DNA of 64,000 nt from Candidatus Micrarchaeota archaeon. GTDB lineage: Archaea > Micrarchaeota > Micrarchaeia > Micrarchaeales > Micrarchaeaceae. This document shows positions 31,039 to 53,405 of this stretch, in pieces. The notes below the pieces were generated by a model. That model was not told where the DNA came from, did no database searches, and saw only the letters and a program-made list of their open reading frames with translations. The first letter of the stretch is position 1. Every line of letters begins with the position of its first letter. Location: positions 71,142 to 135,141 of the forward strand of contig DAHXMI010000004.1 of NCBI GenBank assembly GCA_027365565.1, read 5' to 3'. A program made the translations under genes and the position numbers.

Positions 31039-31500
31039 TTAGTCTTTCAGCTTTACACCAAATTGCCGTTCGTAATTTATTTTTTCTTCATATGTTGGTT
31101 TCCTTAATAGGTGTATAACATCTTTTACAGGTATTTCTTCGATATTTACATATGTGACTGGTTCGCTTGAAACCCATTGTCTTTCTCCTCCACTCTGACG
31201 AAACGTATTGCTGGAGAGCTTGTATACATATATTTGCTCCTGGGCGGGCCAACCTTCATAGGCGATTCCTTGAATTGGTGTTTTATCATAATAGAGGCCC
31301 CCACGCACCATACCTACACATTTAACTAGGGCCATGGCTATCGCAATGTCTTTATTATCCGATGCATAGACCCCAACCTGCACATTTTCTGGAACATTCC
31401 TTATATCCCTACCTTTTCTTGGCAAGAGCATATCTCCTTCTATCTTCTTGGGAGAGCCATGCCATAGGTATTTTGATTTTTCTTCCATACACTCAACCAC
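31039..31500 (-). CDS. Hypothetical protein; possible minimal ADP-ribosyltransferase-fold / Tpt1(KptA)-like catalytic domain
   Basis: YLWHGSP (H-G-S/T motif), GVYASDNKDIA (Y-[AF]-[AS]-D-like), and an AYEGW...IYVY segment. The similarity to ART/Tpt1 motifs is weak and taken from memory. Confidence 0.3.
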   Translation of the reverse strand: MVECMEEKSKYLWHGSPKKIEGDMLLPRKGRDIRNVPENVQVGVYASDNKDIAIAMALVKCVGMVRGGLYYDKTPIQGIAYEGWPAQEQIYVYKLSSNTFRQSGGERQWVSSEPVTYVNIEEIPVKDVIHLLRKPTYEEKINYERQFGVKLKD

Positions 31501-31539
31501 GAAGTTATGATTATATGTAAATTTTGTGATTTGGAATAT

Positions 31540-32361
31540 TCAGAGAAGGAAACTTTTGTATTTTGTGCTCTTCAACGTATCCCAAATAGTCTGCTTGCTT
31601 ATATTTTTGCTGTAATCTTCTGCGATTTCCATTAGATTATCAAAGTCGAATAATTGGCCGCGATGAGAAGACCTTATTTCGCCTCTTATTTTAGTAAGAG
31701 AAGTGTGACGTTCGATTTTGAGTTCCTTACTAATAATACCACGAGGGGTAAAATATCTTATTAGCGCTTCTTCGAAAGCCTTTGCCCCGTCTTTACGGTA
31801 ATCAAGCCTTTTGCTCTTAACCATCATGATGTGCATTAGTTCATGGACAAACTTGTCTATGATGTCATTGTTTTGAAGATCTTGTGGTATACTTAACCCA
31901 ATAATTGGGGGGTCATACGCAAGATTTATGCCTTGTGATGTTATTGCTCTATATAATTCGCAAAGAACCACATTAACTGACATTGGAAGGGTAAAATCAA
32001 ATATCCTTTTTATTAAATCGCTTAGTTCCCCTTCTCTACTTTCCATAAATTTTTCTATCACAAGTTTAGATTTCTCGAACCTAATATCATTTTTGTCTAT
32101 TAAATTGATAGAAAATAAATCGAGCAACTTTTTCAGTTCAGGCGCTTTAGTATAGTCTTCGTTTAAAGCATAGTTATACAATTTAAGCGCAGACGAGTGA
32201 CTTGGTTGATTATGCAAGTAATAAAATAAGTTATACCCTCTGTTGAAAAGGTCTCCAAAAACTTGCGGAAAATGGAGCAGTGTTATCGGTAAATTTCCGT
32301 ACATATGGTCAGTGATAAAAATTTTCCTGATGTCGTTCTTTGTCGTGAATGTAAGTTGCAC
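31540..32361 (-). CDS. Putative zinc metallopeptidase (HExxH...E)
   Basis: The motif FVHELMHIMM is followed by EEAL about 25 aa downstream, a gluzincin-like arrangement. The family is unassigned. Confidence 0.45.
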   Translation of the reverse strand: MQLTFTTKNDIRKIFITDHMYGNLPITLLHFPQVFGDLFNRGYNLFYYLHNQPSHSSALKLYNYALNEDYTKAPELKKLLDLFSINLIDKNDIRFEKSKLVIEKFMESREGELSDLIKRIFDFTLPMSVNVVLCELYRAITSQGINLAYDPPIIGLSIPQDLQNNDIIDKFVHELMHIMMVKSKRLDYRKDGAKAFEEALIRYFTPRGIISKELKIERHTSLTKIRGEIRSSHRGQLFDFDNLMEIAEDYSKNISKQTIWDTLKSTKYKSFLL

Positions 32362-32372
32362 TTCATCACTAT

Positions 32373-33356
32373 CTAAGATTTTATTTTAATTTTCGCCTTT
32401 ATAGATTCTTCCTTTCTTATCAAGTTTTCTGTAGTACATTGGCCTACGCTTGTCCTTAAATTTAGATAACGTTCTCTCGACTTATTCCATATTTCTTTCC
32501 ATGTTTCTTTGTATAGGTTACCGACATTAACATTTCTCAGAAGCAAACACGGCGTTACATTACCGTTTACTAAAACCCCTGCTCTTAGTAATCCAGCAGA
32601 ACATGATTTAAATTCGTACCTGCTTATCAGTGGTTGCTCTTCACCCAAAGTGGTACAATCCAACTTTACTCCTCTTATCAATAAATCCTTATTTTGCTTC
32701 TTAATCTCCTCTGCAATTTTATCATGCAACTCCGACATACTATTATAATCAATTGCCAGGTTACGAAATTCCCTTGGTGATAGAGAAAAGGTGGGTTGTA
32801 GTATTTCCAGATTAAATGATGTTAAATTTTCGTATGATAGTAACTTTCTCGCAGTATTTAGTACGTCAGTATAATTTGCTGATGTAACAACAATACCCAC
32901 GTTAAATTTGATATTGTTTTTTTCTAAAATCTCGATCCCTTTTAATGTTAATTCGCCAAATCCTCTATTTATATTATTTATCTCCGGATTGATGCTATCT
33001 AGCGAAATCTGTATAGCTATGCCTGCATCATCCGTTATGTTTTTAAGCCTAGCAATACTTTCTAAGGATAATTTATGAATCAGAGTTCCGTTTGTACTTA
33101 TTCCGATGCTACTATGAAATTTTTCTTTTGCAAATTCTAGGATGTCTAATATGTCTTTTCTTACGAAGGGCTCACCACCAAGCAAAATTAATTCAAATGG
33201 GTTGGCCTCTCTTTTCGTTTTATCTATTAAGTATTCTATATTGTCTAGTGGAGGTATAATGTTTTTAAAGGGTTTTGCAAAACAGTAGTTGCAACTAAGA
33301 TTACAAACACTAGTTACCTCTATTTCGACCCTGAATGGATATTTAGGAACAATCAA
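32373..33356 (-). CDS. Radical SAM enzyme with C-terminal twitch/SPASM-like auxiliary-cluster domain (peptide/protein-modifying family)
   Basis: CNLSCNYC (CxxxCxxC), GGEPF, STNGTL. C-terminal CSAGLLRAGVLVNGNVTPC (C-x12-G-x4-C) plus a further Cys (GQC). Confidence 0.8.
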   Translation of the reverse strand: MIVPKYPFRVEIEVTSVCNLSCNYCFAKPFKNIIPPLDNIEYLIDKTKREANPFELILLGGEPFVRKDILDILEFAKEKFHSSIGISTNGTLIHKLSLESIARLKNITDDAGIAIQISLDSINPEINNINRGFGELTLKGIEILEKNNIKFNVGIVVTSANYTDVLNTARKLLSYENLTSFNLEILQPTFSLSPREFRNLAIDYNSMSELHDKIAEEIKKQNKDLLIRGVKLDCTTLGEEQPLISRYEFKSCSAGLLRAGVLVNGNVTPCLLLRNVNVGNLYKETWKEIWNKSRERYLNLRTSVGQCTTENLIRKEESIKAKIKIKS

Positions 33357-33367
33357 AAAAGCACCAA

Positions 33368-33775
33368 TTATTTGTCAATCCTTAACACTTCCAAAATGTT
33401 AGGATTTGTCTTCTTGATTGACGCTATGTCTCTTTCCAGTAGGCCACTTAGAACGGTAGTGGCTGCTTCGTTCGCATAATATATACCACCTGTCCTAAGG
33501 TTTCTAACAAACCCGTCACTTCTTACGTTGATGAGGCTTTTTAAAGCAGGGTTCTCCGCCTTTATGCTGAGCATACGTAAATCGTTTTCCTCATCATCAG
33601 GATAATTGCTTTTTCCATCATAGTCAAACCATGCCCCTAGTAAATCATCCTTGTGGACACTAGTGTACTCCTGACTCGGGGAATACGCATACGGGACTAT
33701 CACAGGCTTGTCCGATGCAAGAGCCTTCTCTATTTCCTCTGTTTTCAGTGCTTTCTTTTCCAACCTTGTCTCCAT
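33368..33775 (-). CDS. Protein with C-terminal PqqD-like (RiPP recognition element-like) motif
   Basis: GGIYYANEAATTVLSGLLE resembles the PqqD (G)xxxLNETAAxI(W/L)ELxDG motif. The N-terminal ~80 aa are acidic/aromatic-rich. Promoter-like box upstream. Confidence 0.35.
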   Translation of the reverse strand: METRLEKKALKTEEIEKALASDKPVIVPYAYSPSQEYTSVHKDDLLGAWFDYDGKSNYPDDEENDLRMLSIKAENPALKSLINVRSDGFVRNLRTGGIYYANEAATTVLSGLLERDIASIKKTNPNILEVLRIDK

Positions 33776-33814: not shown

Positions 33815-33914
33815 GGTCGTGCTGGGATTCGGCAGTTGTCGAAAACAGGATGGACAGAGCTCACGCTAAGGCCTTTTTCAAAAGAAAAAAGAAAGATCAG
33901 AGAAGAGATTCGCA

Positions 33915-36750
33915 GATTAGACTTTAGTAACGGTATGTTCGCAGCTCGCGTGAGCTCGCTGCTTACGCACCCGTCCTATCAAAGCCGTCTATTGCGGCCG
34001 TCCTAGTGCCTCGTTTCGGGTAGGGCTTCGTCCTTAGATGCTTTCAGGGCTTATCCCCTTGGCGCGTGGCTACCCGGCAATGCTTACACAACCGGTAGAC
34101 TAGAGGCGCCGATCCCCCGTTCCTCTCGTATTAAAGGGATCTTATCCTCCGGCACTTACACTTCCAGTAGTTACTACCGTACTGTCTCGCGACGTACTGA
34201 ACGCAGCTCACGTGGGTTTTTAATGGACTTCAGTCCAACCCTTGGCTGCTTGTGCACAGCCAGGATAACCCGAGCCCATAACGATGTATCGAACCGCCGG
34301 GTCGATGTGGACTCTTACCGGCGACGAATCGGTTACCTCTAGAGTAACTTGTTTGGCAGACTGGAGCCCCATTAAAAGAGCTACCAGCGATCACATAAGC
34401 CCCTCTTTCGAGTCTGCGCCCCATGCTTTTAGAGGCACAGTCAGCCCCGCATTTGCCTTTATGTTTGAGGGCGGGTTTCCAACCCGCCTAAGCGGAGCAT
34501 AGGACACCTTCGTTTCTTTATAGAAGGCAGCCGTCCAGCCCAACTACCCACCTGCAGCTGTTCCTCACGGTTAGCCACGAGATAAGCTAAGAGTGGTGTT
34601 ACATTGTCGCTCCGCGCGCGCCGCAGCGCGCGCCTCGACGCTCCCACTTACGCTATGCATAACACATCTCATGACAACTACAGGCTGTAGTAAAGTTTCA
34701 TAGAGTCTTCTTTACCCACTGGAAGATCGCGGCATATTCACCGCGTAGTGAGTTCACCAGATCCAATGTTGGGACAGCAGGGGGATCGTTACGCCATTCA
34801 TGCAATCCGCCACTTAAGCGGCTAGGTATTACGCTACCTAAAGAGAGTCAGAGTTACTCCCGCTCTTTGCCAGCGCTTACTCCCGTTGAAACGGGTATTC
34901 ACGTACTGGCGGTGAGCAGGCGTCACCCACTGTACTTAGCGTTTCCGCTTTGCGGTGAGTTGTGTTTTAGATAAACAGTCGTCCCCCTCTTGTCAGTGAC
35001 ATCTGCGCTTCCTAAACGCAGACATGGTTTGTAGAAAACATACACCACTAATTTGCCGATTTCCCTAACATCGGTTATTCTGACACACCTCGGCCTTTTC
35101 AGCCAGCAACACTTTTAATAGATCTAGGTACGGACTTGTGTGATCGTTGCGGATTCCCTTTTCACGGGATCAGGAATTCAGTCCAAGTTCATTTAGTCGC
35201 TTCTCCTCATAACGAGACTCCACGACCATTTGCACGTTCTTTCGGACCTATCCCCAACCGTCAGAAATCTGCCTTGCGTTGCCGCTCCTACACACAAGGG
35301 GCAGGAATATTAACCTGCTTCCCTTTTGCTGCACTGTGGTTGGCGTGCAGCTTAGGATCGCCTAACCCTCCGCTGACAAGCGTTGCGAAGGAAACCGTGT
35401 GCTTAAGGTGTACGGGATTCTCACCCGTATTGGATATTACTAACACCAGGATATTCTCTGCGATACGGTCCACACGTCCTCTCGAACGTGCTTCTTGCCA
35501 TACCGCACGCCATCTTACCTATGCTTTCGCATATCGGGGTCTCGGTACCTGATTTAGCCCCGTATATCTTGAGCTGGAAGAATCTCAATCGGTCCGCTAT
35601 TACGCGTTGTTTAAAGGGTGGCTGCTTCTGAGCCTACCTCCCGACTGTCTATGAAACTTCCGGCCTTTGACACACTCAATCAGGATTTTGGGACCTTAAC
35701 CTCGATCACCGTCGTTCCGGTCTCGCAATGTTGGCTTACCCAGCATTGCCGACTCCAAGGGTCTACACAGCACGTGCATTCGGAGTTTGACAAAGAGGGG
35801 AGGCCTCTCGACCCCTTACCTCCTAATCGGTAGCTCTACCTCACGTGCAAGCTCGCCTTGAGCTATCCTAAAGATACTTCAGATGGGACCCGCTATTGCC
35901 ACGCTCGAATGGTTTATCGCCGCTACCCGCAGCTCGCCCAACAGGTTATACCATGACAGGTGGCGGACCTCCACCAGGCGTTAGCCTAGCTTCGTCCTGG
36001 CCGCGCGTAGTTCGCAGTGGCTTCGGGTCGTATAACAGTGACTTTGGCATTTTCATACCATGCGCCTCGTCTAGGACTGCGCGCTATCGCTTTCGCTCCG
36101 CCTTTCGGCTCGCCACTACCATACACTCCCTGGCTCTTGCTTCAAGAAGAATGATAAGACACTGGTCCATGCGCCTCGCTGGACGCTTTCGCGTCCTAGC
36201 TTCGGCACACTTCTACCCTTTCGTGCCTTACCTGCTTGTAACTGCCTAGTTTCAGATCTGATTTCACCCGCACGCGTGTGCGTTCTTTTTAACTTTCACT
36301 CACGCTACTCGTACGCTATCGGTCTATAGTCAATATTTAGGGTTGGGGTTTAATGCCCCCGTATTCGCACCGAATAATCAGCCGGTACTACTCGCTGCAG
36401 CTATCGCCAACACACTTAACCTACGAGGCTGTCACTCTCTATGGCCGCGCTTTCCAACGCGATCGGCTCATGTGCTGGCTGAATATCGCTACACCACATC
36501 TCCGTACCTTTTACAAGGACGGATTCAGTTCGCCCTGTGCGGCTTTCATTCGCATTACTTACCGCATCGAATGCTCTTTCTTTTCCTGCGGGTACTAAGA
36601 TATTTCAGTTCCCCGCGTGCGCATGCCTGCTTACGCAGGCACAATTCGGCAATCCCGGGTTCAAAGCCTGACTTGCGGCTACCCCGGGCTTATCGCAGCT
36701 TGCCACGGCCTTCATCGCTACTATAGCCTAGTCATCCCCTAGGCAGCTTA
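33915..36750 (-). rRNA. 23S (large subunit) ribosomal RNA, standalone (no linked 16S/5S within the window); ends approximate
   Basis: Conserved LSU blocks on the minus strand: GCAAGCUGCGAUAAGCC near the 5' end (+36700 region), CUGAAAGCAUCUAAG near the 3' end (+34040 region). The flanks can pair as a processing stem (GCGAATCTCTYCTC at 33896 to 33910 and 36765 to 36780). Confidence 0.9.
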
Positions 36751-36912
36751 AATTTTGCGAATCTCTCCTCCTCACATCAATCATGCAAACAGCACGATAT
36801 CACAAAGATTGATACTGCTCAATGCCAAGCTTTCAAATGCAGAAGCATAAAAAGATCAGGCTTCAGCATGTCATGGGCATAAGAGCACCGCAATATATTG
36901 AAGCAACAAGGT

Positions 36913-45764: not shown

Positions 45765-46766
45765 ATGGGGTCGAATAGTGATAGCATGCAGGACAAACAA
45801 TCTACTTCAGGCGGATCAAGGGTATACAAGGGGGGCGTCGCCGCGCTTGCCGACATTCTCATCTTCGTGATATTCACAGGCGGCGGATATTACGTTGGCA
45901 GTATACCGTACGCTTTCGCGGGCTTCGTGCTCAGTTTCATACTGGTACTTTCGCTTTCCATAAGGGTTCTCAGCGAGTGGGACAGGAAGGCAGTGCTCAG
46001 GTTCGGCAGGTACGTCGGCATAATAGGGCCTGGCATATTCCTGATAATACCGATAGTGGACAGTACTATGCCCACGATCGATACCAGGGTGCTCAGCACT
46101 TCTTTCAGGGCAGAGAAGACGCTGACCAAGGACAACGTGCCTGTGGACGTCGATGCCATACTCTTCTGGCAGGTAAAGGACGTGGAGAAGACGGTGCTTA
46201 ACGTTCAAACGTACTACAATTCCGTTCTGCTTGCATCGCAGACCGCGATGAGGGACATAATAGGCAAGAGCGAGCTGTCGACCATGCTTGCAGGCAGGGA
46301 CATAATAGGCAAGGACATAAAGGATCTCATAGAGGAGAGGATACAATCATGGGGCATCGATGCGATATCGGTAGAGATACGTGATGTCACCATACCGCCG
46401 GAACTGCAGAGTGCGATGGCAAGGGTCGCAACCTCCGATAGGGAGAAGCAGGCAAGGGTGATACTGGCGGAGAGCGAATCGCTCGCCGCTGACAAGATGC
46501 TCGAAGCATCGAGCAAGTACGAGAAGGACCCGTACGCCATGCAGCTCAGGGCGCTGAACATGATGTACGAGGTAAGCATAGCGGGCAAGAACGCGATGAT
46601 CTTCATACCAACGGAAACGAAGGGGCTTGCCCTGCCCATACCGTTCGGCGTGAAGGGCATCAACGAATTCCTGAAAGAGAAGCAGCTCAATGAACAGCAG
46701 GCACAGGCACAAGCCCAGAAGAAGCAGAAGCAGCAGAAGAAGCCTGATGATGACGACAGCCAGTGA
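45765..46766 (+). CDS. SPFH/band-7 (stomatin/prohibitin-like) membrane protein
   Basis: N-terminal TM region, then an SPFH core (ISVEIRDVTIPPELQSAMA...), then a C-terminal Q/K-rich coiled tail. Confidence 0.8.
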   Translation: MGSNSDSMQDKQSTSGGSRVYKGGVAALADILIFVIFTGGGYYVGSIPYAFAGFVLSFILVLSLSIRVLSEWDRKAVLRFGRYVGIIGPGIFLIIPIVDSTMPTIDTRVLSTSFRAEKTLTKDNVPVDVDAILFWQVKDVEKTVLNVQTYYNSVLLASQTAMRDIIGKSELSTMLAGRDIIGKDIKDLIEERIQSWGIDAISVEIRDVTIPPELQSAMARVATSDREKQARVILAESESLAADKMLEASSKYEKDPYAMQLRALNMMYEVSIAGKNAMIFIPTETKGLALPIPFGVKGINEFLKEKQLNEQQAQAQAQKKQKQQKKPDDDDSQ

Positions 46767-46780
46767 GTGCCGGCGCGTCA

Positions 46781-47914
46781 TCACATCCTGCTTACCTTCC
46801 TCGCAAGAGGGTCGAACTTGGTGAAGAAGGCGTCCCACGAGTAGTGCTTCTCAATTCTTCTCCTGCCTTCCCTGCCGATGCTCTCCGCGAGCTTGTCGTT
46901 ATCCGCGACAAGCCGCATCTTCTCGGCCATCGCGCGCGGACTGCCCACCAGGAAGCCGGTCTTGCCATCAACTACCGTTTCCCTTGGGCCGCCCTCATTG
47001 ACCGATATCACTGGCTTGTAGCTCGCCATACCCTCTAGAGGCACTATGCCGTAGTCCTCGTTTATCGCTGCGAACAGCACTGCGGTAGATCTCGCATACA
47101 GGTTCCTGAGCTCCTTGTCCGTGGGATTGGGCCTGAACACGACATTCTTAACATTCATACCCTTCAGCTTCTCGTAGTATCTCTTGAAGTCCGCGTACCT
47201 CTCGGACATGCTCCCGGCGAGTATCAGCTTGTAGCCCCTGTACTTCTTCTCCCGGGAAAAGATCGAGAACGCCTCTATCGCGTACTCCTGGCGCTTCTGC
47301 TCAGCTATCCTTGACGGGTAGATGAAGTACTTGCCATCCCCGCCGTCATGGAAATCCTTGTAGTCTATCCCTGGATTTATTATCTCGGCGCTCCTGCCGA
47401 ATATCCTCTTGATGCGGCCGTTCGTCACGCCACTGTTGGTAGCTATGGCCTCTATCTTATCCACTATCCTCTTCTCCATTGTGGAGTATACCCTGCCGAA
47501 GCCCTTGTACATAACCCCTTCGACGAGCGATTTCTTCCTCAGCCCGGAAACCGTCGGATCATAGAGCTCCCTCGGCGGCGTATGGCAGTACCACAGTACT
47601 CTCGGGTTCCTGTTGCGCACCCACTCGCTAGGTGACATGTGAGGGTTAACAACGTCGTAGTCTTCCTTTATCTTCAGGTTGTAGAAGTTGTAGCCGTAAT
47701 GGAGCGCGTTGGCCACCCTTTTGGGGAACAGGCTTCCCGCACGGCCCCTTTTGCCGAACACCCTGATGTCGATGTCGCTGAACTCGTCGAAAGTCCCCTT
47801 CGGGTCGTATCCGAGGGTGTATATCGTGGCGTCGTACTTCTGCGCGATTTTCAGTATGACCCTCTCCGCTCCGCCGCGGTCGTTTATGCTGTGCTGGGTT
47901 ATCGCTAGCTTCAT
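46781..47914 (-). CDS. GT4-family (GT-B) glycosyltransferase
   Basis: The EX7E-type motif is EDYGIVPLEGMASYKPVISVNEGGPRETV. Confidence 0.8.
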   Translation of the reverse strand: MKLAITQHSINDRGGAERVILKIAQKYDATIYTLGYDPKGTFDEFSDIDIRVFGKRGRAGSLFPKRVANALHYGYNFYNLKIKEDYDVVNPHMSPSEWVRNRNPRVLWYCHTPPRELYDPTVSGLRKKSLVEGVMYKGFGRVYSTMEKRIVDKIEAIATNSGVTNGRIKRIFGRSAEIINPGIDYKDFHDGGDGKYFIYPSRIAEQKRQEYAIEAFSIFSREKKYRGYKLILAGSMSERYADFKRYYEKLKGMNVKNVVFRPNPTDKELRNLYARSTAVLFAAINEDYGIVPLEGMASYKPVISVNEGGPRETVVDGKTGFLVGSPRAMAEKMRLVADNDKLAESIGREGRRRIEKHYSWDAFFTKFDPLARKVSRM

Positions 47915-49161
47915 CGGAATACCCTCTTCTGGTACTTATCGAGCTTCGACATTCTCCTCTTATCCACGCCGTTGATGTTGGATATGTTCGCAGGTATGCT
48001 GAACGTCTCGGTTATAGCGGCCTTTCTTGTCAGCTTTGATATCGCATCCTTGTCTCCTTCGACCGCCGCGCGTATGAAGTCGGGTATGTTGATAAGGGAC
48101 TGGTATCCCTTCACCTTTCCGCTGCCCGTGAAGCGCTTCGGCGCTATTACGAGCAACGGCACCTTCACCATCTCGTTGGGTATCATAGTGCCATGGCCTA
48201 TGAACCCGTGCTCGCCGAACAGCTGGCCGTGATCCGATGTCATTATTATTATCTGGTCATCGCCGAACCTCTCCATCAGGTCCCTGATCAGTTCAGTACC
48301 GTACCTCATAGCCCTGCCGGCCGCCTTGGCGTAGAGAGACTTCCACGCCGATATGAGGCTCTCGTTCGGGCCATCCTTCAGGAAGGGCGTAGCCCAGTTG
48401 AAGTCCTTGCCCTTCTTGCCGATGTAGGGGTCGTGGGCCTCCATGAAGTTGACGAAGAGGAAGAACGGCTCTTCCAGCTTCAGGTTCCTTATGGTCTTCA
48501 GCATGTTCTTTCCGCCCTTCTCCACAGGCCAGCCGTCTATCAGCTTCGCCTTGAGCTTCTTGTACGCAGCCCTGGGGGTCAGCTTGCCTGCGCTCAGCGC
48601 AAGCTCGAAGAAGAGGTTGGGGTCCTCCTTCATTATTGCGCGTGTCAGCTTCAGTATGTCATTGCCGTACCTGTTCCTGTACTTCGACACGCGGGGCTTC
48701 AGGTCGTCGGATACCTCTATCACGCTTCCGAATATGTCCGTGAAGTAGGACTCGGCGACATAGGTGTCGAAGCCCTCGAAGCCATAAATGGGGTGTATGT
48801 ACGGGTTCGCGGAGATCCCGTACGTGGAATATCCGCTGCCTTTCAGCTCTTCGGTGATGGTTCTCTTGGTGAGCCTTATGTTGTCTATGTCAAGGGACTT
48901 GACCTTCTTTGTCTCATGGCATCCGTGCTCTGATTGGCTCATCCCGGTGAACAGGGAGGCGTGCGAAGGGAGCGTCCACGATCCTGGCGATATGCACCTG
49001 TTGAACCGAGTGGCATTGAGGCCGCCGATCAGCTTGGGATTCTCGGCGATGAGCCTGTCGAACATGTCCAGCCTCATCGTGTCCAGCACTATTATCGTAA
49101 TGTTAGGAGTCCTGCCCAATCCAGCACCGTATTTTTTTCTCATTACCATTAGCACCGGCAA
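47911..49161 (-). CDS. Sulfatase-like / alkaline-phosphatase-superfamily hydrolase
   Basis: Metal-binding motifs DTMRLD and MTSDHG. SPGSWTLPSHASLFTG. No canonical C/S-x-P-x-R formylglycine motif. Confidence 0.65.
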   Translation of the reverse strand: MPVLMVMRKKYGAGLGRTPNITIIVLDTMRLDMFDRLIAENPKLIGGLNATRFNRCISPGSWTLPSHASLFTGMSQSEHGCHETKKVKSLDIDNIRLTKRTITEELKGSGYSTYGISANPYIHPIYGFEGFDTYVAESYFTDIFGSVIEVSDDLKPRVSKYRNRYGNDILKLTRAIMKEDPNLFFELALSAGKLTPRAAYKKLKAKLIDGWPVEKGGKNMLKTIRNLKLEEPFFLFVNFMEAHDPYIGKKGKDFNWATPFLKDGPNESLISAWKSLYAKAAGRAMRYGTELIRDLMERFGDDQIIIMTSDHGQLFGEHGFIGHGTMIPNEMVKVPLLVIAPKRFTGSGKVKGYQSLINIPDFIRAAVEGDKDAISKLTRKAAITETFSIPANISNINGVDKRRMSKLDKYQKRVFR

Positions 49162-49694
49162 TGCTTAAAACACATGCTCACCGGCACGAAAACGCTTTAA
49201 TATCCGGCATAATAATACCAGTCATGGAGGAGAAGGAGAGAGGGAAGGAGGAGAAGGAGAAGGAAAATGGAAAGGAGACGGTCGTATGCGTATCAGGCTA
49301 CTTCGACCCGATACACAGGGGCCACATCGAATATCTGAGGATGGCATCCGACCTCGGCGACAGGCTTATTGCCATACTGAACAATGACAAGCAGGCGATT
49401 GCGAAGAAGGGATTCGTCTTCATGCCGATGGATGACAAGATTGCAGTGCTCAAGGCGATAAGGTATGTGGATGAAGTTGTCGTGAGCATCGATGAGGACC
49501 AGACGCAGTGCAGGACCCTCGAGATGCTGAAGCCCGACATATTCGCGAAGGGCGGAGACAGGTACGCATACGAGATCCCGGAAGCGGAAGTGTGCAGGAG
49601 GTTAGGAATAAGGATAATAGACGGATTGGGACCAAAGATTCAGAGCAGCAGCGAACTGGTGAAGAAAGCCGCTGAAAGCAAGAAGAATGGTTAG
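49161..49694 (+). CDS. Cytidylyltransferase-family nucleotidyltransferase (TagD/RfaE-II/RibL-like)
   Basis: HxGH motif VSGYFDPIHRGHIEYL. Lys/Glu-rich N-terminal segment. The start is uncertain (Met1 or Met22). Confidence 0.6.
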   Translation: MLKTHAHRHENALISGIIIPVMEEKERGKEEKEKENGKETVVCVSGYFDPIHRGHIEYLRMASDLGDRLIAILNNDKQAIAKKGFVFMPMDDKIAVLKAIRYVDEVVVSIDEDQTQCRTLEMLKPDIFAKGGDRYAYEIPEAEVCRRLGIRIIDGLGPKIQSSSELVKKAAESKKNG

Positions 49695-49876
49695 GTATGA
49701 GATATGATTAGTCTCTATAAACCCTTCTTAGTCACAGGTTCTTGAAAAATGGGAATGGGTAAAAAAGTGCGCCGCAATACATAAGGAATACTTCCCCTCT
49801 CCGTATATATTTCTTGTCGGGTTGCTCAAATGTTATATTTTCAATGCTTTTGACGCCAATGTTTATTGCACTCCCG

Positions 49877-50917
49877 TCAACTTATTCCCACTTCGATATT
49901 TTGCAAGATACTATTGAACGTCTGCTGCGTGCATAGAGGCCCTGAGCAACTTACTATAGCTAGGAAATTGGACTGCTGTACCATAGTAGTGTAAGAGTTA
50001 GGATTCACTGTCAAGTCTTCAATATACTGAAGATTTGCCACAGAACCTGATTGCTGCGCATGTGGTGCTTGATTCGCAAGTATGATGCTAGCCTGTGGCG
50101 TTTCTACCACCAACTCTGTGAAGTTAGATGCGTATGTGCGGTTGTAGTATGTTATGTAATATGAGTATGCCACATTAGTGTTCTGAAATGTGAAGTTGAA
50201 CAGTAAAGTCTGGATAGGTGTTGGAAATAGCAAGTTAAGCGACCCTATTGGTAACTCACCTGCGTTGAGTGCAGACTCGCTGTATGTGCCACTACCGTAT
50301 ACACTCTGTAGCTGCTGCTGCGTCAAATACGGCTTGTTGAGATTTATTGTGTTGCTGGATGGAGGAGTATAGTAGTTTGAGTTGGCAAGGACAATGTATA
50401 TTGCCCATATTATGAACAGGAATGCAATAGAGCCACTTATTGCCTTTGTCATGCCTTTCTGCTTGAAGCTTACTTGTCTCAACGATGCTCCAAGTACCAA
50501 GCCAACTAGTATCAAGATGAAGGCCGCTAACACGAGCAGGACATTGAATGTAAGGCTTGCAAGTAATATGAACACCAGCAACACTGAGATAATGTTCTCA
50601 ACTGCCCATACTCTATGTGATGTAACGAAATCATATATGGAGAACAGAATGAATAGCACGATGAAGCTGCCTAGGAACAGCGGAGAACTGAACGCTGTTA
50701 CCAGCCCTATGTTGGTTATTGCATTGAACAACTTGATAGAAGGTAGTGTCAGAATAAACAGGACTACTGTCATTATTACTGCTTTTATGAGCAACTTCGG
50801 CAGTGCAGTCTTTAGTATACTACTTACTGCCTGGTTCTGTTGTGCTTGCTGTACTTTGTTATATTGAGGTGGCACGCGGTATCCACGCCGTCTATAGTAT
50901 CTGTGTCTTCTTGGCAT
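49877..50917 (-). CDS. Membrane protein with Arg-rich N-terminus, 4 TM helices and an Asn/Thr/Tyr-rich extracellular domain
   Basis: MPRRHRYYRRRGYR. TM block. Multiple NxT/S sequons. About 42% GC. Confidence 0.4.
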   Translation of the reverse strand: MPRRHRYYRRRGYRVPPQYNKVQQAQQNQAVSSILKTALPKLLIKAVIMTVVLFILTLPSIKLFNAITNIGLVTAFSSPLFLGSFIVLFILFSIYDFVTSHRVWAVENIISVLLVFILLASLTFNVLLVLAAFILILVGLVLGASLRQVSFKQKGMTKAISGSIAFLFIIWAIYIVLANSNYYTPPSSNTINLNKPYLTQQQLQSVYGSGTYSESALNAGELPIGSLNLLFPTPIQTLLFNFTFQNTNVAYSYYITYYNRTYASNFTELVVETPQASIILANQAPHAQQSGSVANLQYIEDLTVNPNSYTTMVQQSNFLAIVSCSGPLCTQQTFNSILQNIEVGIS

Positions 50918-51017
50918 ATGAAAGTATACTTTAGCAAGATTTTTATATATTTATTAAATGTAATTTATTCAGTAGAGTATTAGAAAATTTATATTTCACT
51001 TCTTTGTAAACAGGATT

Positions 51018-51031
51018 TGGACTCGGTGGGA
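51018..51031 (+). repeat. Direct repeat of the tRNA-Ala 3' end (TGGACTCGGtGGGA versus TGGACTCGGcGGGA at 53296..53309): candidate attachment-site copy
   Basis: 14-nt match with one mismatch. It lies 2.26 kb from the tRNA, and the sequence between is about 30% GC. Confidence 0.5.
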
Positions 51032-51183
51032 ACTACGCCAGCACAGTAAGTAAAAACCAGAGATAAAGTAATAGGCGCACACCGTACAGTTGATTTTTAG
51101 TCACCCGTAAAGGCTTATAAAGTAAGAAGGTTCAAGTTACATAAATTTAAAGTATTTTGTTTCTATATTTATAGGATGATAAA

Positions 51184-51543
51184 ATGGTTGAAAAGGTACA
51201 GGATATTAAAGCGCCTAAATTTAATAAAACACGTGTCTATTATACGAAATCGCCAGATTATGATACAATATATGCCGATGCTGCAATGATTGCACTTAAT
51301 GAAGATGGTGTTGATTCGTTAAAGATGGATTTTTGGGTATCACATGCTGATTTATATGATGAGATTTGGCATAATAAACCAGAAGATATACCAGAAATAG
51401 AAGTAGGAGAGGTACAATCAATAAATAGAGAGATTAAAGTTAGAATTGCAATGTCGGTAGCAAATGCAAAAAGATTTTATACTGTTCTTGGTACATTTTT
51501 AAATAATAATGAAAATAAAAAGGAGGATAAAAAGAGGGATTGA
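51184..51543 (+). CDS. Hypothetical protein (element cargo)
   Basis: 119-aa ORF whose stop overlaps the next start. Confidence 0.35.
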   Translation: MVEKVQDIKAPKFNKTRVYYTKSPDYDTIYADAAMIALNEDGVDSLKMDFWVSHADLYDEIWHNKPEDIPEIEVGEVQSINREIKVRIAMSVANAKRFYTVLGTFLNNNENKKEDKKRD

Positions 51544-51833
51544 TTTTTATGTATTTGTATGGAAATAAAACTTTTATTCAACCGCAGGGTTTTGGGATAC
51601 AAAAACCTTTCGAAGTCAATAGACCAAAATTTCAATTAACGTCAAAACTGAAGTCAACTGAGGTGAATCCCCTCGTAGAGAAAAATCCAGTAATTGTTAG
51701 TAATGGAGAAATTTTGTTCAATGAAAATAAGTTGATAATTAATGAGTACTATGGATTTGAATATCAGGATAAAAAGTATGTTCTCCACAAATCAGATAAA
51801 AAGACTATTGAGTTATATGAGGTAATTGAATAA
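51540..51833 (+). CDS. Hypothetical protein (element cargo)
   Basis: 97-aa ORF coupled to the upstream ORF. Confidence 0.3.
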   Translation: MIFMYLYGNKTFIQPQGFGIQKPFEVNRPKFQLTSKLKSTEVNPLVEKNPVIVSNGEILFNENKLIINEYYGFEYQDKKYVLHKSDKKTIELYEVIE

Positions 51834-52093
51834 CTACTAATCCCTTAGTAAATGTTGATATAGAATCACCTATACGGAAAGAATATAAGCGATTGGAACT
51901 CGTCTATCGTATAGAAACGGAAGAGTTTGTAGTTTGCCACCCAAAAGAAGTAAGGAAGAAGAAATTATTTTGGGAAGAAATTTGGCTTGTACATTTAAAG
52001 GAAGACGATAGTTGGAGAATTAAAAAATTAGATAAATAATTTATATATTATGCACGACCTCGCTTCGTTTCTTTGGTCTGGTTACTTATTTAC

Positions 52094-52903
52094 TTAACTC
52101 TTAGTTTTGGTACTCTTTTTAGAGAGTTTGGCAGTATTTAAAAAGCGGATATATTTTATGTTTTGCCATTCTATATTACATAGGCCTGTCTTATTTTCCA
52201 ATAGCAGGTACTCTCCAATACCCACTAATTTTCCATAAAGTTTAGATGAAGCATTTATTTCTAAGTAAATATTATTTATCCGCTTTTTATGGAATAATTC
52301 ATTTTCTAAAAACTTTGGATCGGGTAAAGTTATAAACAAGGTCAAAGAGAGAAATGAAGCTAAAATTAATAATTCAATTATTGATGTTGAGGGGTAGACT
52401 ATCGAACCTATAATAAGAGTTACAATAACTGCACTTATTAGATAAACATGTGATTTAGCTAATTGATAGGTTAACTTTGTGTGATGTTTTACCATACCGT
52501 CTGATGAAATAAATATTTGAATCGCTGATATAAATAGAGATGATTCAAGTACTAAAAGTACAAATATTTGTGCTGTGCTATCAATTGAGATTATAGTTGA
52601 TATGGAAACAATTAATATTGAAACTACTGCAATAACCAGCTTTACATTGCTTAATCTTAAACTGTCATAAAAATTTGAAAATATTTTAACATTAAATGCT
52701 AATCGTTCATATGTGTGATACCTTGCATGTTCTTTTGCTTGTACGCTCAAAAGGTATGCACCAAAAATAGGAGACATTGCTGTAGAGATGAGTGTAATAA
52801 AATCTGAAATTTGTGGAGTAAACTCCGAAAAGAAAGTAGAAAGAAAGTGTGTAGAGGGAAGAGTAATAATTATAGTAAATATCGCGCCTTGTTGGATTAA
52901 CAT
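52094..52903 (-). CDS. Hypothetical polytopic membrane protein (element cargo)
   Basis: 269 aa with about 7 TM helices. AT-rich codon usage. Confidence 0.35.
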   Translation of the reverse strand: MLIQQGAIFTIIITLPSTHFLSTFFSEFTPQISDFITLISTAMSPIFGAYLLSVQAKEHARYHTYERLAFNVKIFSNFYDSLRLSNVKLVIAVVSILIVSISTIISIDSTAQIFVLLVLESSLFISAIQIFISSDGMVKHHTKLTYQLAKSHVYLISAVIVTLIIGSIVYPSTSIIELLILASFLSLTLFITLPDPKFLENELFHKKRINNIYLEINASSKLYGKLVGIGEYLLLENKTGLCNIEWQNIKYIRFLNTAKLSKKSTKTKS

Positions 52904-52907
52904 AGTA

Positions 52908-53192
52908 TTACCTAAGTTTCAGTAGATAATATATGAGAAAGATAATCGTCGTGATGATTAAAGGTAATAATATTAAAACTGTGCGTAAAACAAAAAGACT
53001 TGATATATTTAGATTTAGTAATACAGTTATCTCGAACGTTGCAGTAAAAATTACTATAATCTCGAACAGAAAAATTACTATTTTGTTTACCATTATATTC
53101 CCTGTTAAGTTAAAATATCTTAGATAATATTGATGCGTAAATTTTTTACTCTTTCCTTTTATTTTCTTATTTGAACAATCTAAGAATTCCAA
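52908..53192 (-). CDS. Hypothetical small membrane protein (element cargo)
   Basis: 94 aa with two TM helices. It sits 4 nt upstream of the next ORF. Confidence 0.3.
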   Translation of the reverse strand: MEFLDCSNKKIKGKSKKFTHQYYLRYFNLTGNIMVNKIVIFLFEIIVIFTATFEITVLLNLNISSLFVLRTVLILLPLIITTIIFLIYYLLKLR

Positions 53193-53295
53193 GGGTAGAA
53201 GTAAAGCCTAAAGCTACCAGAAAGTGAACCTACTCCGCTTTTTATACTACTCCACGATATTAAACTTGATATTATGGGAGCGTTCGAGAAAACTG

Positions 53296-53367
53296 TGGAC
53301 TCGGCGGGATTCGAACCCGCGACCCCCCGCTTGCAAAGCGGGTGCACTACCCCTGTGCTACGAGCCC
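53296..53367 (-). tRNA. tRNA-Ala (anticodon UGC) with G3:U70 identity pair
   Basis: Acceptor GGGCTCG/CGAGTCC. D-arm GCAC-AGGGGTA-GTGC. Anticodon stem CCCGC/GCGGG with loop TTTGCAA. T-arm GCGGG-TTCGAAT-CCCGC. Discriminator A. Confidence 0.9.
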
Positions 53368-53388
53368 AAGTACAAGAGAGATTCTACG

Positions 53389-53405
53389 CTTAATTATAAA
53401 TAATC
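53389..53405 (-). promoter_or_regulatory. TATA box (TTTATAATTAAG on the minus strand) about 30 nt upstream of tRNA-Ala
   Basis: A/T box at the canonical distance. Confidence 0.5.

Follow-up and report, generated by a model that had tools for sequence, protein, structure and literature searches.

What is the AT-rich DNA that lies against the 3′ end of a tRNA-Ala(TGC) gene in the metagenome-assembled genome of a Candidatus Micrarchaeota archaeon, and how did it come to be there? The locus belongs to a 64,000-nucleotide stretch of contig DAHXMI010000004.1 (assembly GCA_027365565.1), referred to here as the window, whose sequence is the same as that of ENA ERZ27233560 k141_1184651 and GCA_021796075.1 JAJYOR010000002. 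The nearest other genomes carry Micrarchaeota labels; the Micrarchaeota are tiny symbiotic archaea of the DPANN group and form a little-studied lineage. The explanation that best accounts for the locus, with a probability of roughly 0.6, is that 2.26 kb of AT-rich DNA represent a decayed, integrase-less remnant of an integrative element, the younger of a tandem pair at this tRNA gene. An earlier interpretation of the bare letters (the sequence-only reading) had proposed a footprint of site-specific integration, and this proposal is upheld: an intact tRNA gene, foreign DNA and a displaced direct copy of the tRNA 3′ end are all present, and the same footprint recurs in relatives.

The tRNA-Ala(TGC) gene, the proposed integration target, is intact and occupies positions 53295/6–53367 of the minus strand (ARAGORN; Rfam tRNA, 71.2 bits at 53296–53367). 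Its sequence is the same as that of the tRNA of the relative L006 (L numbers designate related loci and contigs), and its low-coordinate, 3′ end adjoins the AT-rich segment. The last 14 nt of the tRNA, TCCCGCCGAGTCCA on the tRNA strand, constitute the tRNA-proximal repeat copy (53296–53309, minus strand), a putative attachment-site (att) core that covers the 3′ strand of the acceptor stem, the discriminator base and part of the T stem. The plus strand at these positions reads TGGACTCGGCGGGA, the reverse complement of the tRNA terminus. The distal copy, interpreted as a displaced tRNA 3′ fragment, is located downstream of the tRNA at 51018–51031 (minus strand), TGGACTCGGtGGGA, and as TGGACTCGGTGGGA matches TGGACTCGGCGGGA of the tRNA terminus in direct orientation at 13 of 14 positions, the mismatch being C to T. 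The 14-nt direct repeat with one mismatch of the sequence-only reading is thus confirmed, and the distal copy is the sole match to the terminus in the 64 kb with up to two mismatches allowed. A longer att match was looked for around the repeat, and the identity extends into neither flank. The distal copy sits in the divergent intergenic spacer between the genes for a 119-residue and a 346-residue protein and coincides with a step in GC content from 30% to 42%, while the opposite boundary is the tRNA end itself. The occupied left junction consists of AACAGGATT, TGGACTCGGTGGGA and ACTACGCC in succession. The predicted empty site would join AACAGGATT, TGGACTCGGYGGGA and TTCGAACCCGC, and the predicted circular form would join CGAGAAAACTG, TGGACTCGGYGGGA and ACTACGCCAGC.

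The segment enclosed by the two copies, proposed as the younger integrase-less remnant, extends from 51032 to 53295 (2,264 bp, ~30% GC). Its composition lies between 25 and 35% GC against ~53% in the host, with sharp steps at both ends; a 42% GC block (49,700–50,900) borders it on one side and ~53% GC host DNA on the other. The GC content at third codon positions amounts to 0.19–0.31 in the genes of the segment, compared with 0.47 for the 346-aa gene and 0.67 for the cytidylyltransferase gene of the host. The minus strand encodes a 269-aa multi-pass membrane protein (52094–52903), an orphan (ORFan) with hydrophobic segments and a 274-codon open run, and, 5 nt upstream of it, a small membrane open reading frame (ORF) with two helices (52908–53192), which starts either with the ATG at 53093 (61 aa) or with a TTG (94 aa). 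Which strand is coding here is uncertain, since the public gene call favours an opposite-strand ORF of 64 aa (52933–53127). Convergent with this pair, the plus strand carries the gene of a 119-aa soluble acidic protein (51184–51543; 122-codon open run), which has a weak match to DUF3467 (Pfam E 8e-4, below the cut-off), and, starting 6 nt past its stop codon in the same operon, a 94-aa ORFan (51549–51833). A 48-aa ORF with a TTG start (51893–52039, plus strand) has no database gene call and is a doubtful gene. The open runs of 274, 122 and 100 codons, which correspond to the ORFs of 269, 119 and 94–97 aa, were reached in 0 of 2000 shuffles. No cargo family rises above threshold in Pfam, PHROGs, NCBIfam or PADLOC, phage and plasmid collections returned no DNA match to the segment, and IMG/VR yielded no homologue of the cargo. 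Among 5.8 billion proteins the 269-aa and 119-aa proteins have no relatives but themselves; an exhaustive HMMER search adds a single remote relative of the 119-aa protein (P0003, 37% identity, E 2.6e-6), encoded on an uninformative contig of 1.4 kb and 37% GC. A role of the cargo at the membrane level, such as the immunity or exclusion suggested in the sequence-only reading, is a guess. The description of the segment in the sequence-only reading, about 2.26 kb of ~30% GC DNA coding for small hypothetical and membrane proteins, is accurate.

The significance of the short repeat emerges from related genomes. The terminal 11–34 nt of the local tRNA recur at seven independent Micrarchaeota tRNA loci; the matches are direct and downstream in 11 of 11 cases, with none upstream or inverted, and every repeat corresponds to its own tRNA. 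In 10 kb, the expected number of exact 12-mer matches is ~6e-4. At L195 a 34-nt repeat at tRNA-Thr(CGT), identical at 33 of 34 positions and composed of 12 nt of tRNA and 22 nt of flank, bounds a 1.8-kb integrase-less remnant in which a DNA-methylase gene (PF01555, E 1.7e-8) and the 203-aa gene of the L206 element survive as fragments and which also holds, 580 bp downstream of the tRNA, a homologue of the 346-aa gene of the window. At L198 a 12/12 repeat of tRNA-Thr(TGT) is found 196 nt past the stop codon of the homologue, and both here and in L200–L203 the homologue lies within a 33–38% GC block that begins at the 3′ end of tRNA-Thr(TGT). Two 12/12 copies are present at tRNA-Thr(CGT) in L208, and in L208–L210 the homologue lies beside tRNA-Thr(CGT) and an integrase ORF cut to its N-terminal SAM-like domain. 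The tRNA-Leu loci L056/L153 and L165 display a 17-nt repeat 72 nt away and a 16-nt repeat 611 nt away, respectively, the latter with a GC dip. In a control set of 18 tRNAs in ~2.2 Mb of loci fetched for other reasons, repeats occur only in the window and in the two independent, Micrarchaeota-like loci L056/L153 and L165.

An apparently intact element of ~10 kb is found at tRNA-Ala(CGC) (L206 1–8088, together with L204/L205). The tRNA is followed by an intact 394-aa tyrosine integrase (PF00589, E 8e-17), a 282-aa protein, a 996-aa InlB-repeat protein, a 203-aa protein and, at the far end of the unit, a 343-aa membrane protein homologous to the 346-aa protein of the window; the last part of the element holds small ORFs and then the CCGCCGAGTCCA repeat. 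Three copies of CGCCGAGTCCA lie downstream of tRNA-Ala(CGC) in L204/L205, and the 12-nt core CCGCCGAGTCCA is common to these loci and the window repeat. Two further repeat copies in L204/L205, 4 and 4.5 kb on, enclose NUDIX, tRNA-synt_1b, PIN/RHH and methyltransferase genes. In tblastn and tblastx comparisons of the window with L194–L210, only the 346-aa gene is shared; no counterpart was found in the window for the other genes that such elements share (integrase, 996-aa InlB-repeat, 203-aa and 323-aa proteins). Micrarchaeaceae tRNA genes thus appear to be used repeatedly by tyrosine-integrase elements whose identity block is the last 11–17 nt, sometimes with flank, and such elements appear to decay to integrase-less remnants of 72 nt to several kb. 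The repeat at 51018–51031 is convincing because the same footprint recurs in related genomes, and its 13/14 match is accepted as a real att-type footprint because it fits this decay series. The available part of the literature on DPANN viruses and archaeal proviruses does not describe this element family.

The integrase is missing from the window. Neither PF00589 nor another recombinase was found in ORFs or six-frame translations of 49,700–53,400, Pfam, PHROGs, NCBIfam and PADLOC reveal no integrase in the AT-rich segment, and the L206 integrase has no tblastn match in the 64 kb. The sequence-only reading had left a choice between loss of the integrase and a gene split on integration, as in elements of the Sulfolobus spindle-shaped virus (SSV) type. 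Loss agrees with the series seen in relatives, where the integrase is intact in L206, truncated in L208 and absent from L195; since intact and truncated forms both exist, integrase loss is a process seen directly. The split integrase is rejected: no ORF abuts either repeat, no ORF of at least 40 aa crosses 51018–51031, the ORFs across 53296–53309 are 55–59 aa long and show no similarity to integrases, and the search for integrase fragments across the locus, in six frames and by tblastn with the related integrase, returned nothing. The integrase of the related elements is unsplit and lies outside the att core.

The history proposed for the locus would begin with a plasmid- or virus-like element that a tyrosine recombinase integrated by recombination of attP with the last ~14 nt of tRNA-Ala(TGC). 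Element DNA would have rebuilt the tRNA 3′ end, the original 3′ end being displaced to 51018–51031. The integrase gene, which normally comes directly after the tRNA in related elements, would have been deleted later together with most of the remaining genes, leaving two small sets of ORFan genes, the membrane ORF with the 269-aa gene on the minus strand and the 119-aa and 94-aa genes on the plus strand. The AT-rich element would have inserted ahead of an older remnant, of which the 346-aa gene with its promoter is left, and the resulting accretion array would read tRNA, young remnant, tRNA fragment, old remnant, host. We infer in this way the integration event, the order of the insertions, the loss of the older distal att site and the present immobility of the element, which is probably no longer able to move.

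The 346-aa membrane protein (49877–50917, minus strand, 42% GC), proposed as the product of the surviving gene of the older, tRNA-distal remnant, displays a basic N-terminal tail, ~5 transmembrane helices and a conserved Cys-containing C-terminal domain. A structure prediction for the family from a 28-sequence alignment was unusable (mean predicted local distance difference test score 43). The protein has 35 homologues (56–86% identity), mostly from Micrarchaeaceae and in unrelated gene neighbourhoods. Homologues are present in four element-bearing tRNA loci, adjoining tRNA-Thr or tRNA-Ala inside repeat-bounded segments, and on a wrap-around contig of 11.5 kb. One homologue of 79% identity, P0008, carries the NCBI label of a Thermoplasmata metagenome-assembled genome, the usual host lineage of Micrarchaeota; the label may reflect a binning error or host–symbiont transfer. 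In the window the 346-aa gene is positioned just outside the repeat-bounded 51032–53295. The limits that the sequence-only reading gave to the insertion therefore describe the repeat-bounded part correctly and stop short of the foreign region, which continues past 51018 into this gene of 42% GC. The membership of this gene in a mobile-element gene family suggests either a tandem array or a more extensive remnant, and only in one of these two arrangements does the 346-aa gene fit the element class. The distal att site of the older element would be expected in the spacer (49695–49876) that separates the 346-aa gene from the cytidylyltransferase gene of the host, since the distal repeat lies ~190 nt past the stop codon of the homologue in L195 and L198. 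Fragments of tRNA-Ala bounding older layers at 49,700 or 46,760 were also sought; none was found, the best candidate being a 10/11 match inside the sulfatase gene (48747) that is taken as chance.

The wrap-around contig, L197 (JGI 3300005861, Ga0080006_1137938; 17 kb, 35% GC), repeats itself with a period of 11,529 bp and 0 mismatches over 3,958 nt, which points to a circular molecule (a putative plasmid or virus) or a tandem repetition. Its genes encode a 915-aa protein, a 713-aa protein with three Big_1 domains and the 346-aa homologue (80% nucleotide identity), which is GC-richer (44%) than its surroundings (35%). No attP-like core for Ala, Thr or Leu tRNAs and no Rep, capsid or integrase was recognised on it. 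In L208 (4652–6292, minus strand) and L209, a 546-aa protein encoded two genes from the homologue bears the label Fsx1 (PF28161) in a precomputed table, a label not reproduced with Pfam. Archaeal fusexins have been reported within integrated mobile elements (PMC9259645).

Two contigs from other samples depart from the window at this locus, each with ~120 nt of non-window sequence at a contig end. L089 (1–123) runs from the promoter of the 346-aa gene, at 50958, into other AT-rich sequence with one open frame, and L101 (1–119) diverges inside the 346-aa gene at 50561, replacing its C-terminal two-thirds. Both ends may be real strain variants or chimeric contig ends; the L089 junction suggests that the AT-rich module is exchangeable. 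The contig ends near the repeat (L002 and L098 end at 51036, L088 starts at 51054) were considered as a population branch point at the att site and rejected, because 19 nt are common to the two sides and different assemblers produce the same end, a pattern consistent with shared reads that leave a gap in coverage. Similarly, the Logan contig breaks at 53316/53344 fall inside the tRNA, arise from k-mers common to other tRNAs and are uninformative on the island.

Several results weigh against an integrated and decayed element. The repeat is short and imperfect, and its standing against chance depends on the test: for an anchored 14-mer with at most one mismatch within 10 kb of the tRNA end the analytic expectation is ~0.0016, but under a looser test, in which any piece of the 3′ 40 nt of the tRNA may match in the 10 kb downstream of composition-preserving shuffles, the observed score was reached in 7% of shuffles. 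An unrelated inverted match of 15/16 in the same region outscores the repeat, which by itself is not beyond chance under the permissive test and is suggestive, not decisive. The searches turned up neither an empty site nor a circular junction nor an allele free of the island; the JGI metagenomes do not contain the predicted empty-site sequence, and at least 10 population contigs over the locus, from different samples and assemblers, are all identical to the window. The L089 junction is 60 nt away from the repeat. Neither the related elements nor viral and plasmid collections nor protein databases contain relatives of the AT-rich genes, and nothing in the cargo itself marks a mobile element. 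For the older remnant, no distal repeat is detectable in the spacer at 49695–49876. In addition, AT-rich DNA can enter this genome without leaving a tRNA-repeat footprint, because a second AT-rich island (31,039–33,775; 29–43% GC), which adjoins the 23S rRNA gene (33,906–36,764, minus strand) at its 3′ end, has neither a repeat of the 23S 3′ end nor a flanking tRNA.

The best-placed alternative, which is nevertheless unlikely, divides the locus differently: ~49,700–53,295, with the 346-aa gene included, would be one remnant of 3.6 kb whose true distal att site has been lost, and the match at 51018 would be a chance, secondary or internal site. In L195 and L198 no further gene separates the homologue from the distal repeat, and the stretch from the L198 homologue to the tRNA is occupied by ORFans, an arrangement that a single remnant would reproduce. 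The contrast of 44% and 35% GC within L197 indicates that a GC step need not mark a separate insertion, and the frequency of the repeat score in permissive shuffles leaves room for coincidence. A single remnant requires, however, both a lost att site and a coincidental 13/14 match with the tRNA terminus, the orientation, the spacer and the GC step all right. Tandem tRNA-end fragments are, moreover, known in relatives, with three copies in L205 and two in L208, and L089 suggests that the AT-rich part can be exchanged independently of the 346-aa gene. The tandem array is the most economical reading because only the loss of the older distal att site is required.

The surroundings of the tRNA in the two nearest species-level relatives bear on whether site-specific recombination was involved at all. 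In L006, whose neighbouring beta-CASP protein is 86% identical at the amino-acid level, nucleotide synteny reaches exactly the tRNA 3′ end (53296) and restarts at the Band_7 gene (46756), with just 367 bp between the two syntenic blocks. In L114 (87%), the sulfatase gene comes straight after a degenerate tRNA-like sequence. Neither relative carries the AT-rich genes, the 346-aa gene or the cytidylyltransferase gene. Because the AT-rich genes are absent from L006 and L114, the segment appears to be lineage-specific. The two loci are not clean empty sites, because the whole tRNA 3′ flank varies, host-like genes included. The comparison with related strains suggested in the sequence-only reading thus gives absence of the segment from both relatives, together with flanks that differ in host-like genes and no island-free allele within the species. 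The tRNA-like sequence of L114 (VFSW01095726, 1789–1860) stands at the position of tRNA-Ala, is not called by ARAGORN and represents either a tRNA in decay or a fault of the assembly. The glycosyltransferase, sulfatase-family and cytidylyltransferase genes of the window (46,757–49,694) have host-like GC content, are absent in L006 and are partly present in L114; the tRNA-Ala flank also appears to be a variable locus of cell-surface glycan genes.

In another alternative, the AT-rich DNA would have entered by illegitimate or homologous recombination at a strain-variable hotspot by a stable-RNA gene, with a coincidental 14-nt match. Such an origin is quite unlikely. It draws on the variation of the tRNA-Ala 3′ flank among relatives even for cytidylyltransferase, sulfatase and glycosyltransferase genes, on the repeat-less island beside the 23S rRNA gene, on a cargo devoid of mobile-element genes and on the weakness of the match under the loose test. 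It conflicts with the seven related loci, where 11 of 11 repeats are direct and downstream, match their own tRNA and in some cases accompany integrases, and with the adjacent 346-aa gene, whose family is carried by such elements.

Integration at a tRNA 3′ end followed by decay is a textbook process, and the window case is ordinary in kind. Preferred integration positions in tRNA genes, including 3′-end sites, were reportedly classified by Williams in 2002. Among streptococcal integrative and conjugative elements (ICESt1/ICESt3), cis-mobilisable elements (CIMEs) are att-flanked remnants without a recombination module that form by deletion and lie in tandem with other elements at the 3′ end of a tRNA or other gene, and their mobilisation in trans has been demonstrated. 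The window segment is similarly att-flanked, recombinase-less and tandem; it differs from CIMEs in domain of life and integrase family. In the Islander collection, tyrosine-integrase elements split a tRNA gene and restore it, the far boundary is recognised from a displaced 3′ fragment, several islands in tandem at a single tRNA are on record and an integrase gene is a required filter (Hudson, Lau & Williams 2015, PMC4383910). The window resembles these islands in its intact tRNA, its displaced direct 3′ fragment and the DNA of foreign composition in between. In contrast to them it has no integrase gene, its identity block is only 14 nt long with one mismatch, and its size (2.3 kb) is far smaller than is typical; under the Islander definition it would be classed as damaged or inactive. 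Elements with SSV-type (suicidal) integrases in Sulfolobales and Thermococcales integrate into tRNA genes (Badel et al. 2020, PMC7253208). They share with the window an archaeal host, the use of tRNA genes and a capacity to look integrase-less after insertion, but their att site lies inside the integrase ORF and Int(N) and Int(C) abut the repeats, ORFs that the window lacks. Further counterparts are the Micrarchaeaceae elements of L206 with L204/L205, which display the same CCGCCGAGTCCA terminus, a short acceptor-stem core and the family of 340-aa membrane proteins. They differ in that no gene is common with the window cargo and in that the 346-aa gene of the window lies outside the repeats.

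A more far-reaching interpretation, quite improbable at present, would make Micrarchaeaceae tRNA 3′ ends serial gene-capture platforms on which small integrase-less modules are exchanged in trans, with the window segment as an active cassette. Acceptor-stem cores of 11–17 nt would then be reused by a lineage-specific tyrosine integrase, mostly ORFan modules of 72 nt to ~4 kb would pile up, and the 340-aa membrane protein would be kept by selection, for example as an exclusion or cell-contact factor of elements that in one case also lie next to the precomputed fusexin hit. A still-mobilisable cassette moved in trans by the integrase of a co-resident L206-type element is very unlikely. In its favour are two nearly identical att-type copies, related integrases directed at the same tRNA-Ala end, the many repeat-bounded segments (72 nt to 4.2 kb) of this lineage that lack an integrase, and the alternative AT-rich cargo of another sample. 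Movement in trans is argued against by the mismatch within the 14-nt core, the lack of an integrase in the window and the fixation of an identical island in all sampled populations, and neither an empty-site nor a circular form was found.

Read as the remnant of an integrated element, the segment would provide a precisely mapped mobile-element remnant in a genome of the Micrarchaeota, a DPANN group with barely described mobile elements. The recurrent footprint could seed a systematic catalogue of Micrarchaeaceae integrative elements, and ORFan AT-rich genes in such reduced genomes may be traceable to element traffic rather than to annotation noise.

The second AT-rich island, beside the 23S rRNA gene, contains four minus-strand genes. 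One encodes a radical SAM/SPASM maturase (PF04055, E 1e-18; PF13186, E 1e-8) and the three other proteins have no significant family match; the gene set resembles a peptide-modification cluster.

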